Origin: Corallococcus soli
Lineage (GTDB): Bacteria; Myxococcota; Myxococcia; Myxococcales; Myxococcaceae
Assembly: GCF_014930455.1 (NCBI RefSeq)
Contig: NZ_JAAIYO010000008.1
Span: forward strand, 224,367 to 288,366
DNA: 64,000 bases
Direction: 5' to 3'
Below, piece after piece: positions 22,045 through 29,060 of the stretch (the stretch's first letter is position 1; every line of letters starts with the position of its first letter). A model generated the notes under the pieces. That model had not been told where the DNA came from. It did not search any database and was given only the letters and a program-made list of their open reading frames with translations. The translations under genes and the position numbers were made by a program.

Positions 22045-22205
22045 GCGTGACGCTCCTTCTGAGGATTGAGCACGCAGGGTGGGGACCGCCTCGTGGAGTG
22101 ACCATCAGCGGCTCAGCCGATGCCACTGTGGCGCAGTCCACAGGCCGCCCCACGCAGCGCGCCCGTCCCGGGGCCGGCCGGCAGGTCGCCTGCCGCCAGC
22201 GAAGC

Positions 22206-22425
22206 GGTCCCGGGACGCGCGATTTTCCCGGCGACCCGGTGCGCCAACCCCTAGAGTCCTCCTTGATGAGTGCCCAAGCCGACACCCGCGCCCCGCTCGT
22301 CGCCCTGCTGCCGAAGCCTGGCGAGTCTTCTCTCGACGACCGGAGCACCTTCGAGCGGCTCCAGAACGGCATGCCGGAGCCGCTGGAGTCCTGCTTCGAG
22401 GTGAGCCACGGCCTCCTGCTCAACC
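22206..22425. repeat. Chimeric duplicate of the helicase gene promoter and 5' end, fused to an internal helicase segment
   Basis: 22206-22340 matches 24172-24306 (helicase upstream region plus its first 24 codons or so, about 135 bp, with roughly 6 mismatches). 22336-22425 matches 25487-25576 (an internal helicase segment, about 90 bp, 1 mismatch). The two pieces join at a shared acgac pentamer. The result is a 65-codon in-frame remnant ORF (ATG 22265, MSAQADTRAPLVALLPKPGESSLDDRSTFERLQNGMPEPLESCFEVSHGLLLN...) whose TGA (22458-22460) overlaps the toxin ATG (22457). Confidence 0.9.
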
Positions 22426-22456
22426 CTCCAGTGCGCCAAACCCTGGCAAGCTCGGA

Positions 22457-23167
22457 ATGAACTTCCGAACTTGCAGCGCACTCCGCCAGGCCGTTGTCGT
22501 TGCCGTCGCCGCAGTTGGGTGCGCCACCTCTCAGGAGGCGCCTGAGACCTACGCTTGGGCGCCTGTGCGCCCGCCCGCTGTGCCCGGCACGGGCCTCCCC
22601 ACTCGCGGGCAGCCAGGGCAGGCTCGCCCCCAGCCCCTGCCGCGAAGCCCGCACAAGCGCATGTTGCCGCCCACCCGGGAGCCGGGCCTTTGGGCTGGAG
22701 ACGCTCCTCGGGCCTCGCAGGAACCGGAGGCGAACTCCACACCGGAGAGGTCCCAAGCGAACAGGAACGACCCGCCTGCCCCGGTGACGGCGGAGCGCCG
22801 CTTGGAGTGCGACCCCCTCCCGGTGCCGCACGCGGGCGAGGATGCCTCGCATGACGCGTGCGCCGACACATTTCCGCCCAACCGTTACCCTGGAATGGAC
22901 GTGCGCGTGGGCGGTATGCGCTTTGATGCGCTGCAAGTCGGCGTGCGCGTGCTGTGGGAGATCAAGACCCACCGATTTGACACATACAATGCCTTCCTCC
23001 GGGAACGGACAATCCTGGAGCAAGTGCCGTTGCTGAAGGAAGAGCGCGACATCGCTGAGGCATGTGGCTATGGATTCGTTGTCGGGGTGAGCACCCAAGA
23101 GCACAAAGACGCGTTGCTCGACGAGGATATCTCCCTCAATGTTGTCGTCACGGGGTGCAAGCGATGA
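22457..23167 (+). CDS. Small lipoprotein toxin candidate (SitA-like) with a C-terminal PD-(D/E)xK restriction-endonuclease-fold-like domain
   Basis: N-terminal signal and lipobox: MNFRTCSALRQAVVVAVAAVGCATS, with Ala at +2. The C-terminus reads GMDVRVGGMRFDALQVGVRVLWEIKTHRFDTYNAF, which gives a D...E-x-K arrangement. The ORF-track N-terminal extension (from 22079) was rejected because it reads through the duplicated helicase fragment in a different frame. Confidence 0.6.
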   Translation: MNFRTCSALRQAVVVAVAAVGCATSQEAPETYAWAPVRPPAVPGTGLPTRGQPGQARPQPLPRSPHKRMLPPTREPGLWAGDAPRASQEPEANSTPERSQANRNDPPAPVTAERRLECDPLPVPHAGEDASHDACADTFPPNRYPGMDVRVGGMRFDALQVGVRVLWEIKTHRFDTYNAFLRERTILEQVPLLKEERDIAEACGYGFVVGVSTQEHKDALLDEDISLNVVVTGCKR

Positions 23168-23922
23168 CAAGGCAGAGAACCCTCATCCATATCGTCTTCG
23201 CGCCTGCGCTCGTGGGCGACGACGGTCGCACGCTCGCGGTCGTCCACGGAATCGAACGGGCGCTCTCTGGTGTGCGTTTGGAGTGGGAGCTATCTGAGGC
23301 GGGGCGGCCCATCGCGTTGGCGCGACGCGATGGGTGGCTCGCTGAAGCAGCGGTGCGCGGGGAGTTCCCGTTACTGTGCAACGGCGACGAGAGTTACCCG
23401 GTAACGGTTTATGGGTTGCGGACATCCGGGCGCCAATCGCCGGGCGGCCAGCCGTTGCTCGATGTCCACGCAAAGCTGCCGCTGGATGCGGTCGGCATCG
23501 CAGCGGCGGCGGAGATGCTGGAAGGCGTGGCGGAAGGCGCGCGAGCGTTTTGGGGACGCGTGTTGCCGGACGGAGTGGCTTCGGAGGTGGCGAAACAGTT
23601 TCGCCACTCGATGGAGCAGCCGCATGTACCGCCCCGGGGTCTCCCAGCGCTCAACCTTCCCAAGCACCTCCGCTCGCCAGAGATCCCCCATTACCTCGGG
23701 TGGCTGAACTACTGGTCGGCAGCCACCGCACAGAGCCTCGGGTTCCCGGACCCTGCCCGAGATGCGGACCTGCTTTCTCGGGCGCGGCGTACGGCCATGG
23801 GCGGGTGGGTGGTTCGGCTCACGGAGACGCCGCTGGATCTCGACAATCCCGCGCACCTTGAGGCGCTCGTGCGGGCGTACGAGCGTTTCCCGGAAATTGG
23901 CGGGCGCGTGACTCCGGGCTGA
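23164..23922 (+). CDS. Candidate cognate immunity protein
   Basis: ATG 23164 overlaps the toxin stop TGA 23165-23167 (an ATGA overlap). It is 252 aa and cytoplasmic, with no signal peptide. Confidence 0.55.
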   Translation: MTRQRTLIHIVFAPALVGDDGRTLAVVHGIERALSGVRLEWELSEAGRPIALARRDGWLAEAAVRGEFPLLCNGDESYPVTVYGLRTSGRQSPGGQPLLDVHAKLPLDAVGIAAAAEMLEGVAEGARAFWGRVLPDGVASEVAKQFRHSMEQPHVPPRGLPALNLPKHLRSPEIPHYLGWLNYWSAATAQSLGFPDPARDADLLSRARRTAMGGWVVRLTETPLDLDNPAHLEALVRAYERFPEIGGRVTPG

Positions 23923-24231
23923 GCTGAAGCTGTCCGACGGGCCGCCGAGTCCCCGCCGTGCGGGTTGGAGGCCGCAGGGCTCGTCTGGCTGGAGCCTCTC
24001 TGGAGGTGACAGACGTGCCCTGCCTGTCGCCGGAGCAGACCGGCAGGGTGCGCTGGAAGCGCCCGGCAGCGATTGAACCCCAGCGGGAGGGCCGCATTGC
24101 CCTGGGACTGTACGTCGCCCGGTGAGCGCGGACCTGGAACATCAGGGCGGTTGTCGCGTTCGAACAACTTGGGTCCGCAGGCGCGCGATTTTCCCGGCGA
24201 CCCGGGGCGCCAACCCCTAGAGTCCTCCTTG

Positions 24232-26793
24232 ATGAGTGCCCAAGCCGACACCCGCGCCCCGCTCGCCGCCCTGCTGCCGAAGCCCGGCGAGCCTCCTCTC
24301 GACGCCGATGAGATCCTCAACCGCTTCGTCGGCTACGTGGCCACCAACGGGCTGAGCCTGTACTCCGCCCAGGAGGAGGCCATCCTGGAGCTGCTGAGCG
24401 ACAAGCACCTGTTCCTCAAGACGCCCACGGGCTCCGGCAAGTCGCTGGTGGCCATGGCGCTGCACTTCAAGGCCATGGCCGAGGGCAAGGTGTCGTTCTA
24501 CACGTGCCCCATCAAGGCGCTGGTGAACGAGAAGTTCTTCCAGCTCTCCAAGGCCTTCGGCCCGGAGAACGTGGGCATGCTCACGGGCGACGCGAGCATC
24601 AACCGCGAGGCGCCCATCCTCTGCTGCACGGCGGAGATCCTGGCGAACCTGGCGCTGCGCGACGCGTCCGCGCGCGTGGACGCGGTGGTGATGGACGAGT
24701 TCCACTACTACTCCGACAAGGAGCGCGGCACGGCCTGGCAGATTCCGCTGCTGGCGCTGCCCAAGACGCAGTTCCTGCTGATGTCCGCGACGCTGGGCGA
24801 CACGCACATCATCGAGCAGAGCCTGGAGCAGCTCACCGGCCGCGAGGTGGCCACGGTGCGAAGCTCCGAGCGCCCCGTGCCGCTGGACTTCGACTACCGC
24901 GAGGCCGCACTGCACGAGACCATCCAGGACCTCATCGCGCGCGGGAAGTACCCCATCTACCTGGTGAACTTCACGCAGCGCGCCGCCGCCGAGCAGGCGC
25001 AAAACCTCATGTCGGTGGACTTCAACACCAAGGAGGAGAAGGAGGAACTGCGGCAGGCGCTGATGGACGCGCCCTTCGACACGCCCTACGGCAAGGACTT
25101 CCAGCGCTACCTGCGCCACGGCATCGGCATGCACCACGCCGGCCTGCTGCCCAAGTACCGGCTGCTGGTGGAGAAGCTGGCGCAGCAGGGCCTGCTCAAG
25201 GTCATCAGCGGCACGGACACGCTAGGCGTGGGCGTGAACATCCCCATCCGCACGGTGCTCTTCACGCAGCTGTTCAAGTTCAACGGCGAGAAGCTGACGA
25301 CGCTGAGCGTGCGCGACTTCAAGCAGATCTCCGGCCGCGCGGGCCGCAAGGGCTACGACACCGAAGGCAGCGTGGTGGCGCAGGCGCCCGAATACGTCGT
25401 GGAGAACATCAAGCAGGCGGCCAAGGAGGCCGCGGGCAAGAAGAAGACGCCCAAGGCGAAGCCGCCGCAGAAGGGCTTCGTGCAGTACGACCGGAGCACC
25501 TTCGAGCGGCTCCAGAACGGCATGCCGGAGCCGCTGGAGTCCCGCTTCGAGGTGAGCCACGGCCTCCTGCTCAACCTGCTCCAGAGCGACAAGACGGAGG
25601 GCAGCGGCGGCTACAAGCGGCTGGTGCAGTTGGTGCGCCGCTCGCACAGCTCCGAGTACACGAAGAAGAAGCTCCTGAAGGACGCGGCGATGTACTTCCG
25701 CACGCTGCGCGAGGCGGGCATCGTGCAGGTGGTGCAGTGGGAGGGCCGCTCCTCCACGGTGGAGGTGGCGGGCGAGCTGCAACGCGACTTCAGCCTCAAC
25801 CACACGCTGTCGCTGTACCTGCATGAGACGCTGGAGCTGTTGGACCCCGCGGTGGAGACGTACGCGCTGGACGTCGTCACGCTGGTGGAGTCCATCCTGG
25901 AGAACCCGGACGTGGTGCTGTACGCGCAGCTGCACCAGCTCAAGGGCGAGAAGATCCAGGAGATGAAGGCGCAGGGCATGGAGTACGACGACCGGATGGA
26001 GGAGCTGGAGAAGCTGGAGTGGCCCAAGCCCAACCGCGACTTCATCTACGGCACCTTCAACGCCTTCGCGCGCAAGCACCCGTGGGTGGGCGAGGAGAAC
26101 ATCCGGCCCAAGGCCATCGTGCGCGACATGTTCGAGCGCTTCATGTCCTTCCACGACTACGTGCGCGAGTACGGCCTGCAGCGCAGCGAGGGCGTGCTGC
26201 TGCGCTACGTGGGGGACGTCTACAAATCGCTGGCGCAGACGGTGCCGGAGAAGTTCCGCAACGAGGAGGTGGACGACATCATCGACCACCTCCGCGCGAC
26301 GCTGCGTCAGGTGGACTCCAGCCTCCTGGACGAGTGGGAGCGGATGAAGAACCCGGACGCGCCGCTGGAGGCGAAGCCGGTGGTGGACCTGAAGCCCAAG
26401 GAGCTCACCGAGGACCCGAAGGCCTTCGCCGCGCGCGTGCGCGAGGAGCTGCACCGGCTGCTGCGCGCCCTGGGCCAGCGCCGCTTCCTGGACGCGCTGG
26501 GCATGCTGGACAACGCCCTGGGCGAATGGACCGCGCCCAAGCTGGAGCAGGCCATGGCGCCGTACTTCGAGGAGCACAAGCTGGTGGTGCTCACGCCCCA
26601 GGCGCGCAAGCCGGCGAACACCCAGCTCAAGGAGGCCGGCACCCGGCAGTGGGAGGCCCAGCAGCGCATCATGGACCCGGAGGGCCATGGGGACTGGGTC
26701 ATCGACTGTGAGATCGACCTGCGCGGCCGCCGCATGGACGACGGCCCCATCCTGATGCTGCGCCGCATTGGCGGCATGAGCGCGTGGACCTGA
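24232..26793 (+). CDS. DEAD/DEAH-box (Ski2/Lhr-like) helicase with a long C-terminal DUF3516-like domain
   Basis: Walker A is TPTGSGKS, the DEAH-type box is VVMDEFHY, motif III is MSAT and motif VI is QISGRAGRKG. The start at ATG 24232 was chosen over the ORF-track start at 24073. Its promoter and 5' end are the source of the duplicate at 22206-22340. Confidence 0.9.
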   Translation: MSAQADTRAPLAALLPKPGEPPLDADEILNRFVGYVATNGLSLYSAQEEAILELLSDKHLFLKTPTGSGKSLVAMALHFKAMAEGKVSFYTCPIKALVNEKFFQLSKAFGPENVGMLTGDASINREAPILCCTAEILANLALRDASARVDAVVMDEFHYYSDKERGTAWQIPLLALPKTQFLLMSATLGDTHIIEQSLEQLTGREVATVRSSERPVPLDFDYREAALHETIQDLIARGKYPIYLVNFTQRAAAEQAQNLMSVDFNTKEEKEELRQALMDAPFDTPYGKDFQRYLRHGIGMHHAGLLPKYRLLVEKLAQQGLLKVISGTDTLGVGVNIPIRTVLFTQLFKFNGEKLTTLSVRDFKQISGRAGRKGYDTEGSVVAQAPEYVVENIKQAAKEAAGKKKTPKAKPPQKGFVQYDRSTFERLQNGMPEPLESRFEVSHGLLLNLLQSDKTEGSGGYKRLVQLVRRSHSSEYTKKKLLKDAAMYFRTLREAGIVQVVQWEGRSSTVEVAGELQRDFSLNHTLSLYLHETLELLDPAVETYALDVVTLVESILENPDVVLYAQLHQLKGEKIQEMKAQGMEYDDRMEELEKLEWPKPNRDFIYGTFNAFARKHPWVGEENIRPKAIVRDMFERFMSFHDYVREYGLQRSEGVLLRYVGDVYKSLAQTVPEKFRNEEVDDIIDHLRATLRQVDSSLLDEWERMKNPDAPLEAKPVVDLKPKELTEDPKAFAARVREELHRLLRALGQRRFLDALGMLDNALGEWTAPKLEQAMAPYFEEHKLVVLTPQARKPANTQLKEAGTRQWEAQQRIMDPEGHGDWVIDCEIDLRGRRMDDGPILMLRRIGGMSAWT

Positions 26794-26800
26794 CGGACGC

Positions 26801-27085
26801 TCAGCGCGGGGGCGGCCTGGAGTCCCGGGCCGCCGCGCGCACGGTGTCCGCCGCCGCGTCCACCTCCGCGAGGATGCGGCGCGCGTGGTGGAGCAGGGCT
26901 TCTCCGGTGGGCAGCAGCCGCATGCCCCGGGGGATGCGCTCGAACAGGGGCGCGCCCAGCTCATCCTCCAGCGCGAGGATGTGACGGCTGAGCGGCGGCT
27001 GGGTGAGGTGGAGCCGGAGCGCGGCCCGGCCCACGTGGCCCTCTTCCGCCACCGCGACGAAGGACTGGAGGTGCGTGATGCTCAC
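26801..27085 (-). pseudogene. Truncated LysR-family regulator (HTH domain only, 94 aa)
   Basis: The N-terminal LysR HTH is present (ITHLQSFVAVAEEGHVGRAALRLHLTQPPLSRHILALEDELGAPLFER). The protein terminates after about 94 aa, directly abutting the helicase stop, and the substrate-binding domain is absent. This looks like a remnant at the edge of the AT-rich island. Confidence 0.6.
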
Positions 27086-27117
27086 GCCCCCAGGTTAGCG
27101 CGGGACGTCCGGCAGGG

Positions 27118-29060
27118 CAAATAACCAAACGACTATGATTGAGGAGAAATGACAAGCGTCTTGCCTTGAGCAAGTTCAAATCTTTTCGCAGGTTTGAAAG
27201 CCTCACTTTTTCTGGAAGCCTGCCTGCACCCGGCCAAGGATCGAATATCTGAACTGAACCCACCAAATCCAAGGCTTCCTGCGGCAAAAAACTACTTGTC
27301 GGAGAGGGGATGGCAACCCATTGAACGGACCAAGATCCGCAATGTCACCAGCCCGGATTCGGCACGCCCTTCGCCTCTCCTAGATAGTGGCGCAAGCTCT
27401 ATGACTACTCCAGAATCACTGCATGCCAGTATTGTTGTCTCTGAGATATCCGTGCTGTTTGAGTTTCAGCAAACCGTCCAAACAATGCGCGCACAGCGGT
27501 GACGGCCTGTGTAGGAGGACCCCTCTGCCGGCGAAGCCCACCAAATTTTCTGACTAGAATAGCTTACGCATATAACTGGGCGGGCGAGTTCCAGTTAGTG
27601 AGGTCCGCGATCGCGTCAACTGCTGTTGCAGTGACACATGCGTGAGGTGTTTTCTGTTGTGCTCGGACTCGGTGTCTGCTTCCCTGATTTCAAATGTAGT
27701 CACATGGACAGCACCTATGTTTCTTCACCAGCGATCTTCATTCTGATGAATGCCTTCATTGCTGGATCTACAAAGGTTGTGTAGTTTTGAACCCTTTCGC
27801 CGCCCTCTCCGCGCTCAACATCTTTTAGCACAGGGCCATAGGTGGTCTCCTTTAATTGCCGTAGTGGACCCGACAAGGCAGTACTCGGGATGTCCTCTCC
27901 AAGCTGTTTTGTGATGCTGTCGCACAGTTGCTCCATGGTTACGTAGTCATTGTCCATTTCTGCCATTGCGCGCAAGATCTGCTTCCTGTATCTTTTTTGG
28001 CCGAATGTTTCGATGGCTTTTAGGTACAGGTCATCTAGTCGGCGCGCGCGCTTGTTGACGTAGGATGTGAGTGATGATTTGAAGTCATCCATAGAGGCGG
28101 TGCGTGGAGCCCGAGCAAATGCCTTCTCTGCTATTTCCAGGCAGAGGTACTGTACGAGCGACGGGGAGCCTGATGAGGTTTTGACGATCTTGTCGGCAAT
28201 TGATTTTTCTATATCTATCTTGAGATCGGTCATGCCTTTTTCGATGATGAATCGGGATTCTGCCGTGCTCATTGCTTTGAGTGGGATCTCTTGTAGTAGG
28301 CGATCAATTCCAGGGTCGCGCCGTACGAGCCGGCTTGCGTCTGATGAAGTGCCCAGAAGAATGATCCTGAAGTTTTTGCAGTTTTTGTTTGCGTATGTTT
28401 TTATGAGTAGCGTTATTTGCTCTACGAAGTCGGGTGTCGCCTTGTGTAGCTCGTCTAGCAGTAGGACCAGCTGGTGTTGCTCGCAGAGGTCGATGACCTT
28501 GGAGTCCGTGGGTGAACTTACGGCGAATTGGGCTTTCTGAAGTGCGGTCTCGCCGGCAGTGTTTGAATTTTCACCGGTCAAGGATGCTTTAAATGCCTTG
28601 AAGGGGATTTCTACGCCTCCGGTCACTTTGGTTGTGGCTGATTCTGTTTGCTGGGTTGTGATTTCCGTGGTGATTGTGTATCCGATTGTTTCAAGGCAGC
28701 GCTTTAGGATGTCGCTTACTGATTGTCCTGCGACGCTCTCGATGTTGACGAGGCGTTTCTGCTTTTCGGCGTCAAGGACGCAGCGCCGTGCCATTGATGT
28801 TTTCCCAACTCCATATTCGCCAAATACTAACGGTATCATTCCGCGGCGAAGGGCCTTTTGGAAGTCTTCTTCGGCTTCGCCACGCTTGGCGTACACGTTT
28901 GTTTGATCTAGCGGGAGTTGGCCTGGGCGGAAGACTTGATTTGGATCGAGCATGTGGAGCCAGTGCTTTCTTGATTCGTCTTGATGCTGATGAGTTGCCA
29001 GTTGACCTGAAGCTGCATTGATTATTGGTGGGCGTAGTGGTTTAGGACCGGTGCAGCCCG
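27118..29060. mobile_element. AT-rich foreign island of about 1.9 kb (horizontally acquired segment)
   Basis: There is an abrupt compositional shift from about 70% GC to roughly 45% GC, judged by eye, across 27118 to about 29060. The only convincing gene inside is the AAA+ ATPase, which uses A/T-ending codons. The 10-mer CTAGAATAGC occurs at 27555-27564 and 29068-29077, on either side of the ATPase gene, each followed 14-16 nt later by GGGCGGG. No integrase or transposase is present. Confidence 0.7.
27715..28953 (-). CDS. AAA+ / P-loop ATPase of foreign origin (ORC/archaeal-ATPase-like, family assignment tentative)
   Basis: Walker A is FGEYGVGKTSMARRC, Walker B is LVLLLDELHKAT and a sensor-like TSSG motif is present. 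412 aa. Its low-GC codon usage is unlike every other gene in the window. Confidence 0.8.
   Translation of the reverse strand: MLDPNQVFRPGQLPLDQTNVYAKRGEAEEDFQKALRRGMIPLVFGEYGVGKTSMARRCVLDAEKQKRLVNIESVAGQSVSDILKRCLETIGYTITTEITTQQTESATTKVTGGVEIPFKAFKASLTGENSNTAGETALQKAQFAVSSPTDSKVIDLCEQHQLVLLLDELHKATPDFVEQITLLIKTYANKNCKNFRIILLGTSSDASRLVRRDPGIDRLLQEIPLKAMSTAESRFIIEKGMTDLKIDIEKSIADKIVKTSSGSPSLVQYLCLEIAEKAFARAPRTASMDDFKSSLTSYVNKRARRLDDLYLKAIETFGQKRYRKQILRAMAEMDNDYVTMEQLCDSITKQLGEDIPSTALSGPLRQLKETTYGPVLKDVERGEGGERVQNYTTFVDPAMKAFIRMKIAGEET

Follow-up and report, generated by a model that had tools for sequence, protein, structure and literature searches.

A mobile cassette for a predicted lipoprotein toxin and its immunity protein, of the DUF6310 and DUF5953 families, in Corallococcus soli, probably acting between neighbouring cells

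The stretch of Corallococcus soli DNA analyzed here (64,000 nucleotides of contig NZ_JAAIYO010000008.1, hereafter the window, in whose coordinates all positions are given) carries two overlapping genes that probably form a polymorphic toxin-immunity cassette acting between neighbouring cells, with outer-membrane exchange as the favoured, though tentative, route. The first gene (22457..23167, plus strand; ATG at 22457, TGA at 23165-23167) encodes a 236-aa lipoprotein built from three parts: a signal peptide with lipobox (aa 1-22, 22457-22522, plus strand), a proline-rich, conserved linker (aa 23-111, 22523-22789, plus strand) and a C-terminal domain of the PD-(D/E)xK type belonging to the Pfam family DUF6310 (aa 112-236, 22790-23164, plus strand). 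The second gene (23164..23922, plus strand; ATG at 23164, TGA at 23920-23922) encodes a 252-aa DUF5953 protein with an Imm52-like fold and no obvious signal peptide, its start codon overlapping the stop codon of the toxin gene in a 4-nt ATGA (23164-23167).

That these genes encode a PD-(D/E)xK toxin together with its immunity protein is very probable. When compared to Pfam, residues 112-234 of the lipoprotein matched DUF6310 (E 1.7e-54, 183.6 bits; gathering cut-off 27) and residues 18-250 of the second protein matched DUF5953 (E 2.7e-119, 397.6 bits; cut-off 25). An AlphaFold2 model of the toxin domain (pLDDT 89, pTM 0.83) displayed the alpha-beta-beta-beta-alpha-beta succession typical of a PD-(D/E)xK core, in which D157 (22925-27) and E168-x-K170 (22958-60 and 22964-66, all plus strand) were placed on consecutive strands. 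These residues, which belong to the motif FDALQVGVRVLWEIKT and presumably are the catalytic ones, were strongly conserved among 52 divergent cluster representatives: D157 and K170 were found in all 52, and E168 in 49, with Asp in the other three. In the same set, C118, H132, D137, D148 and C203 were also near-invariant. The toxin domain combines a restriction-endonuclease fold with a catalytic motif of the FDG...EAK type.

Fold matches of both proteins led to the TseT-TsiT complex of Pseudomonas aeruginosa (PA3907-PA3908; PF15648 and PF15579; PDB 7dym and 9oz0), the second protein being matched as Imm52-like/TsiT, so that each of the adjacent genes, toxin and immunity, independently found its counterpart among the two chains of a single effector-immunity complex of solved structure. 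According to PMC9635880, which cites Burkinshaw 2018 and Wen 2021, TseT is a nuclease effector, and its proposed inhibition by TsiT works through disturbance of the oligomeric state of TseT. Zhang et al. 2012 defined Tox-REase-5 by the motifs Y, FDG, EAK, Y, Q and W, and listed Imm52 as immunity partner (PMC3482391). The DUF6310 domain is structurally related to the Tox-REase-5 domain of TseT, but only remotely. The two differ in that DUF6310 carries a further Cys/His-rich segment at its N-terminus (C-x-P-x-P-x-P-H-A-G-x-D-x-x-H-x-x-C-A-D) and conserves four cysteines, and in that TseT is a T6SS (type VI secretion) effector while the window toxin is a substrate of the Sec/lipoprotein pathway.

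An earlier sequence-only reading of the window had described the 236-aa reading frame whose stop codon overlaps the ATG of a 252-aa reading frame, and its coordinates agree with ours. The C-terminal D...E-x-K arrangement that it pointed out is present, its assignment of a restriction-endonuclease-fold toxin domain is backed by the TseT-TsiT fold match and the retained candidate catalytic residues, and the translational coupling of the toxin gene to a cognate immunity gene is borne out by the ATGA overlap, the TsiT fold match and the pairing with DUF5953. Its statement that no described family can be named for either protein from the sequence has to be corrected, as the Pfam search assigned them to DUF6310 and DUF5953, both of which are uncharacterized families. 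A longer in-frame reading frame from a GTG at 22079 (362 aa) was rejected, since all homologues start at MNF(R/Q)TCS.

The distribution of the two families shows the toxin domain to be a portable module. At least 770 DUF6310 clusters were found versus at least 1599 DUF5953 clusters, and the named sources all belong to the Myxococcaceae/Archangiaceae (Corallococcus, Myxococcus, Pyxidicoccus, Stigmatella, Hyalangium and Archangium). In an exhaustive domain-only search covering 200 cluster representatives, DUF6310 was always located at the extreme C-terminus, ending short proteins and also proteins of 520-1130 aa. It was preceded by eCIS_core/DUF4157 in at least 11 representatives and by Transglut_core or CBM_2 in others; an N-terminal DUF4157 followed by a C-terminal toxin is the architecture reported for toxins loaded into extracellular contractile injection systems (eCIS; PMC8213781). 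In one eCIS-type protein (P0251) a DUF5953 gene lies immediately downstream, which indicates that the pairing tracks the toxin domain and not the delivery part, as one would predict for a cognate toxin-immunity pair. DUF6310 thus behaves as described for polymorphic toxins (PMC3482391), being found behind lipoprotein, eCIS_core, Transglut_core and CBM_2 N-termini, with DUF5953 downstream in both the lipoprotein and the eCIS contexts. The window toxin shares with the eCIS toxins the C-terminal DUF6310 family and, in at least this one case, the downstream DUF5953 gene (PMC8213781), but it lacks DUF4157, carries a lipoprotein signal instead and has no contractile-injection genes nearby.

A second lipoprotein architecture ending in DUF6310, of ~303 aa, was represented by P0062, P0067, P0071 and P0242 and their relatives. 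Its lipobox is succeeded by ~70 conserved residues that include Cys, then by ~30 hydrophobic ones (LGxGLCVLAAPEIVVGAVIVVGVVVVGVAI), and a linker leads on to the toxin domain. In many of the long eCIS-type relatives, too, the toxin domain is directly preceded by hydrophobic residues.

The cassette in the window is a strain-specific two-gene insert. Hyalangium gracile, Stigmatella aurantiaca and Stigmatella sp. ncwal1 carry the same pair with the same 4-nt overlap, each time in unrelated surroundings; Stigmatella sp. ncwal1 has two copies, one of them beside an insertion sequence (IS) element, so that four cassettes from three other genomes hold the pair as a unit. This recurrence, along with the lipobox present in 34 of 35 close relatives and the retention of D157, E168 (E or D) and K170 in the 52 representatives, argues against a chance pairing of reading frames. 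Between genera, nucleotide homology (79-86%) was restricted to the two reading frames and ended 1 nt past the immunity stop codon. Its start lies 3-4 nt ahead of the toxin ATG in the case of the window, whereas the other four cassettes share sequence from ~15 nt upstream onwards, where a conserved AAAGGACGYGGAATG motif is located. An empty site was found in C. sicarius, C. aberystwythensis and Corallococcus sp. RDP092CA, where a DUF4142 gene is followed directly by the helicase gene that flanks the cassette in the window, and the cassette was likewise absent at nine further orthologous helicase loci (Myxococcus, Archangium, Cystobacter and metagenome-assembled genomes). The GC content at third codon positions was 0.76 for the cassette, compared to 0.89 and 0.97 for the upstream gene and the helicase gene, respectively.

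Comparison of the five orthologous cassettes revealed a mosaic of divergence. The signal peptide (mean aa identity 81%, synonymous divergence (dS) 0.23) and the linker (87%, dS 0.17) were followed by a toxin domain with 78% identity and a dS of 0.47 and by an immunity gene with 74% identity and a dS of 0.60. Within the toxin domain, a hypervariable segment located in the long helix of the model (aa 178-200, 22988..23056, plus strand) had a mean identity of only 53% with a dS of 0.73, and a nonsynonymous divergence (dN) of 0.375 versus 0.074 in the domain core, which was 85% identical. This segment is a candidate immunity-specificity surface and may form part of the interface with the DUF5953 protein. 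The conserved N-terminus joined to a diverged toxin and immunity part fits a polymorphic toxin. In Archangium violaceum and C. exercitus, N-terminally truncated toxin remnants were found beside intact DUF5953 genes. Taken together, the unrelated loci, the homology confined to two reading frames, the empty sites, the codon usage, the mosaic divergence and the immunity genes beside truncated toxins are the signatures of a polymorphic-toxin locus. Two outcomes that would have spoken against the sequence-only reading, conservation of the cassette at the same locus in relatives and a match to a housekeeping family, were not observed: the cassette is missing from this locus in sister species, and it is variable and mobile.

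Several of the toxin genes are miscalled in the public annotation (L085:4291-5004, L086:4633-5001 and L087:4357-5001); the first of these, from Stigmatella sp. ncwal1, encodes a full 237-aa lipoprotein annotated as 128 aa.

The N-terminus of the toxin reads MNFRTCSALRQAVVVAVAAVG|CATSQEAP, in which an N-region bearing positive charge is followed by a hydrophobic core of 11 residues and by the lipobox, Cys22 being the residue to be lipidated. The type II signal peptide with the lipobox AVGC and Ala at position +2 was already seen in the sequence-only reading. Its conclusion that Ala at +2 directs the protein to the outer membrane was borrowed from the rule for E. coli and does not carry over; the Ala itself is there (AVG|C-A-T-S). 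Lys at +2, which serves M. xanthus as inner-membrane signal, is missing from the toxin and from the 34 of 35 close relatives with a lipobox, and the toxin is thus predicted to leave the inner membrane. The mature N-terminus, C-A-T-S-Q-E-A, places another Ala at +7. For M. xanthus, a role in extracellular-matrix sorting has been reported for Ala at +7, which sends FibA into the matrix, a rule based on seven of ten matrix lipoproteins and one mutagenesis experiment (PMC3222651).

The stretch between Cys22 and the toxin domain comprises 89 residues, of which 22% are Pro and 12% hydrophobic. A search with residues 1-111 retrieved small proteins that share the linker motif (GQPGQ..PRSPHxRxLPPxREPGLWAGDxPxAS) and have other C-terminal domains. 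One such tail, NHHVIS...HCGYQKWH (L088:4001-5207), looks HNH/AHH-like from its sequence; the downstream gene is CxxC-rich and gave a borderline Imm11 match (21.9 bits versus a cut-off of 22.1) as well as a match to Gmx_para_CXXCG, and no lipobox was found upstream in frame of this linker protein. A second tail is a helical, Cys-containing domain (L089:3863-4525), in which case the true reading frame begins further upstream and opens with the lipoprotein signal MPLLLLLLLVAGC|ASPG. These sequences hint at a possible short conserved lipoprotein head with swappable toxin tails, the alternative tails being uncharacterized. Imm11 genes were also found near two cassettes (L085 and L089). In Corallococcus sp. 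ZKHCc1 1396, with which both proteins are 100% identical, the public annotation of the toxin reads 'minus agglutinin', a label almost certainly acquired in error through the proline-rich low-complexity region.

From the above we infer nuclease activity, neutralization, a delivery route and an entry mechanism as follows. The precursor would be exported by Sec and cleaved and lipidated at Cys22, giving a mature toxin that consists of the 89-residue proline-rich, probably disordered and strongly conserved segment and a 125-residue PD-(D/E)xK domain. The cytoplasmic, Imm52/TsiT-like DUF5953 protein, made by ATGA coupling, would bind and neutralize the nuclease. The lipoprotein would be passed to neighbours of the same or related strains, reach the cytoplasm and degrade nucleic acid in cells without a matching DUF5953 allele, and the cassette would serve as a kin-discrimination or addiction module. 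A role in intercellular antagonism, and not only in self-protection, is likely. The route of transfer would most likely be TraAB-mediated outer-membrane exchange as for the SitA toxins, with the short linker in place of their escort domain; the lipobox without Lys at +2, the occurrence in the same genera as SitA and the use of Tox-REase-5 domains in the SitA3 family are consistent with this. Taken on its own, delivery by outer-membrane exchange is a tentative assignment, to which we would give somewhat less than an even chance.

A number of observations weigh against this interpretation. For the proteins themselves, PF15648 (Tox-REase-5) gave no match at E values up to 10 in 28 toxin homologues, and PF15579 (Imm52) none in 22 immunity homologues at relaxed Pfam thresholds. 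The model of the immunity protein is of low confidence (pLDDT 61). An hhalign comparison of DUF6310 to five C-terminal domains of the Tox-REase-5 type from the SitA3 family gave a weak probability of 13%; FDA/FDG and WEIK/LEAK were in register in this alignment, which serves as a check of motif register only. Profile searches of the PDB returned chance-level matches apart from BPSL2088 (E 0.26), and neither DUF6310 nor DUF5953 was mentioned in the literature searched. The interpretation assigns no role to the four near-invariant cysteines of the toxin (aa 118, 135, 203 and 234; 22808-10, 22859-61, 23063-65 and 23156-58) or to H132; disulfides, as would suit a protein of the periplasm, or a metal site may be involved. 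Activity, neutralization and transfer are predictions for all DUF6310 and DUF5953 proteins. As regards transfer, the toxin has no escort domain, and 27 of 29 close relatives share its Ala at +7, the reported matrix-sorting signal. The window copy has furthermore exchanged its native Shine-Dalgarno motif for helicase-derived sequence, which makes its expression uncertain. C135 is replaced in some eCIS-type relatives.

The conserved +7 Ala (PMC3222651) is also an argument for a real toxin-immunity pair delivered in another manner, by way of the surface, the matrix or outer-membrane vesicles, with bacteriocin-like entry and the proline-rich N-terminus acting as a colicin-like translocation segment. 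The low hydrophobicity and high Pro content of a linker that is nevertheless 87% identical, and the lack of an escort domain, point in the same direction. In colicins, a disordered N-terminal segment serves in translocation. No receptor-binding domain was evident in the toxin, however, and the +7 rule has the narrow basis given above. The data agree with this route and with outer-membrane exchange alike, and we consider it a serious alternative, although an unlikely one.

The pair might instead consist of a nuclease exported for feeding, predation or turnover of extracellular DNA and a barstar-like partner that safeguards the producer. Myxobacteria secrete many hydrolases, and an exported nuclease-fold protein with a cytoplasmic partner would suit such a role. 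It is, however, difficult to reconcile with the use of DUF6310 as a C-terminal module of eCIS-type proteins, once followed by DUF5953, with the intact DUF5953 genes beside truncated toxins and the excess of DUF5953 over DUF6310, and with the hypervariable patch, the divergent paralogous pairs in one genome and the presence or absence of the cassette among sister species. This explanation is regarded as improbable.

The sequence-only reading had proposed the pair as a candidate SitA/SitI cassette. SitA toxins form six families (SitA1/2, 3, 4, 5, 6 and 7). Each family has a distinct escort domain at the N-terminus, ~375 aa long, by which it is defined and to which the passage into the recipient cytoplasm is ascribed (PMC8546572, PMC10433427). 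The conserved N-termini defining SitA1 and SitA3 span 507 and 441 aa, respectively (PMC5562445), and the listed full-length proteins of the SitA1/2 and SitA3 families are mostly ~430-780 aa (PMC5562445, supplementary file 1). Vassallo et al. 2017 based their argument for outer-membrane localization of SitA on the absence of Lys at +2 and of Ala at +7, and outer-membrane lipoproteins are reportedly transferred efficiently by outer-membrane exchange (PMC5562445). The window toxin resembles SitA in being a lipoprotein without Lys at +2, in its C-terminal nuclease-type toxin domain, and in the overlapping or adjacent immunity gene downstream in one operon. Both are polymorphic, present in several copies and horizontally acquired; SitA is listed in the same genera as the sources of DUF6310 and DUF5953 (PMC5562445, supplementary file 1), and members of the SitA3 family carry canonical Tox-REase-5 domains (also PMC8546572).

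There are several differences. With 236 aa the window toxin is shorter than most of the listed full-length proteins of the SitA1/2 and SitA3 families, it has 89 residues in the place of an escort domain of ~375-500, no sitB gene accompanies it, and Ala is conserved at +7. A BLASTP comparison to full-length SitA3, rebuilt from PMC5562445 supplementary file 3, gave no match (best E 0.84), while the escort domains of SitA1/2 and SitA4-7 were compared by length only; none of the lipoprotein DUF6310 representatives had an N-terminal region of escort-domain size. The exported nuclease-fold lipoprotein with coupled immunity proposed in the sequence-only reading is supported, but the lack of an escort domain and of similarity to SitA3, and the +7 Ala, argue against membership of the SitA/SitI families. 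A true SitA/SitI cassette of one of the six described families is very improbable, and the toxin should not be filed as SitA.

Contact-dependent and Rhs toxins (CdiA-CT/CdiI and Rhs-CT/RhsI, including the PD-(D/E)xK CdiA-CTs of PDB 4zqu, 4g6u and 4g6v) use other delivery machinery, and the window toxin is far smaller; it has neither a VENN nor a PxxxxDPxGL motif, the junction here being PRSPHxRxLPPxREPGLWAGDxPxAS. The pair gave no match in PADLOC, which speaks against a known defence system, neither protein had a match in NCBIfam, and DUF5953 was not matched in the phage and plasmid collections searched. A type II toxin-antitoxin or anti-phage abortive-infection module working inside the producer can practically be dismissed: a small overlapping mobile operon with a nuclease-fold toxin, 3 kb from an island with a candidate defence NTPase, might be taken as such, but the conserved signal peptide and lipobox indicate that the toxin leaves the cytoplasm, no PADLOC match was obtained, the toxin gene comes first and is followed by the larger partner, and secreted and eCIS architectures exist.

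The surroundings of the cassette record how it is placed in the window. Relative to the sister species, the insertion amounts to 1966 nt and holds the cassette. It is bounded by a 133-nt direct duplication, present as a single copy in the sister species. Copy 1, the left scar (22206..22338, plus strand), is 93% identical to copy 2 (24172..24304, plus strand) and comprises the upstream region, start codon and first 24 codons of the helicase gene; copy 2 belongs to the intact DEAD/DUF3516 helicase gene (CDS 24232-26793), of which it is the genuine upstream region and 5' end. Copy 1 is followed by a displaced internal helicase piece of 104 nt (22336..22439, plus strand), which is 99% identical to window positions 25487-25576 and only 88-91% identical to four sister Corallococcus loci, and therefore is of recent origin. 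Together these pieces create a 64-codon remnant ORF (MSAQADTRAPLVALLPKPGESSLDDRSTFERLQNGMPEPLESCFEVSHGLLLNPPVRQTLASSE*; 22266..22460, plus strand), in which helicase codons 1-24 are fused in frame to the internal helicase piece and whose TGA overlaps the toxin ATG (ATGA, 22457-22460). The right scar (23973..24171, plus strand) is the remnant of the 3' end of a PASTA-domain gene, as shown by blastn of window 23973-27107 against L007 4554-7694 (91.8%); this gene is intact upstream of the helicase gene in C. carmarthensis (L007:4290-4706).

The sequence upstream of copy 1 resembles C. sicarius and that upstream of copy 2 resembles C. carmarthensis, and no transposase, integrase or terminal repeat was found at the insertion. 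The locus thus looks as if two arrangements had recombined through illegitimate joints. The window copy may be expressed via the duplicated 5' region of the helicase gene and translational coupling to the remnant ORF, which we infer may act as a leader ORF for the toxin; a scan for promoters and terminators gave nothing above the shuffled expectation.

In C. carmarthensis the PASTA gene stands among repeated small genes that are clustered upstream of the helicase gene; their products end in ...LVPVPPP, and two of them have PASTA domains. On the other side of the helicase gene in the window lies a truncated LysR regulator consisting of the HTH only (94 aa, 26801-27085, minus strand), beside which an island of ~2 kb with 50-58% GC is located (both within window 26801-29000), 3 kb from the cassette. 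An NTPase of the P-loop/STAND type is encoded there (412 aa, 27715-28953, minus strand), for which PADLOC gave a match to its candidate defence family PDC-S59 (E 1.2e-14). This low-GC island looks like a second, independent insertion.

On this interpretation, DUF6310 would be a Tox-REase-5-like nuclease toxin family and DUF5953 an Imm52-like immunity family, so that two Pfam domains of unknown function acquire a specific hypothesis as to what they do. Cassettes of the DUF6310/DUF5953 type and their linker-sharing relatives could even represent an unrecognized, escort-less family of kin-discrimination lipoprotein toxins in which the linker of ~90 residues (PRSPHxRxLPPxREPGLWAGD) replaces the 375-aa escort domain and would carry an exchangeable nuclease from the outer membrane or the surface into the cytoplasm of a neighbour, a speculative proposal that we put forward as possible but doubtful. 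The predicted lipoprotein toxin-immunity pairs found here make up a large family outside the six listed ones, its named sources being restricted to the same genera. Myxobacterial self-recognition is at present predicted from traA alleles and the sitAI loci of six families; if DUF6310 toxins are exchanged between cells, compatibility predictions based on these six families would be incomplete. If a short disordered segment indeed takes the place of the escort domain, these proteins would offer a minimal system for the passage of a lipoprotein toxin across the envelope of the recipient.

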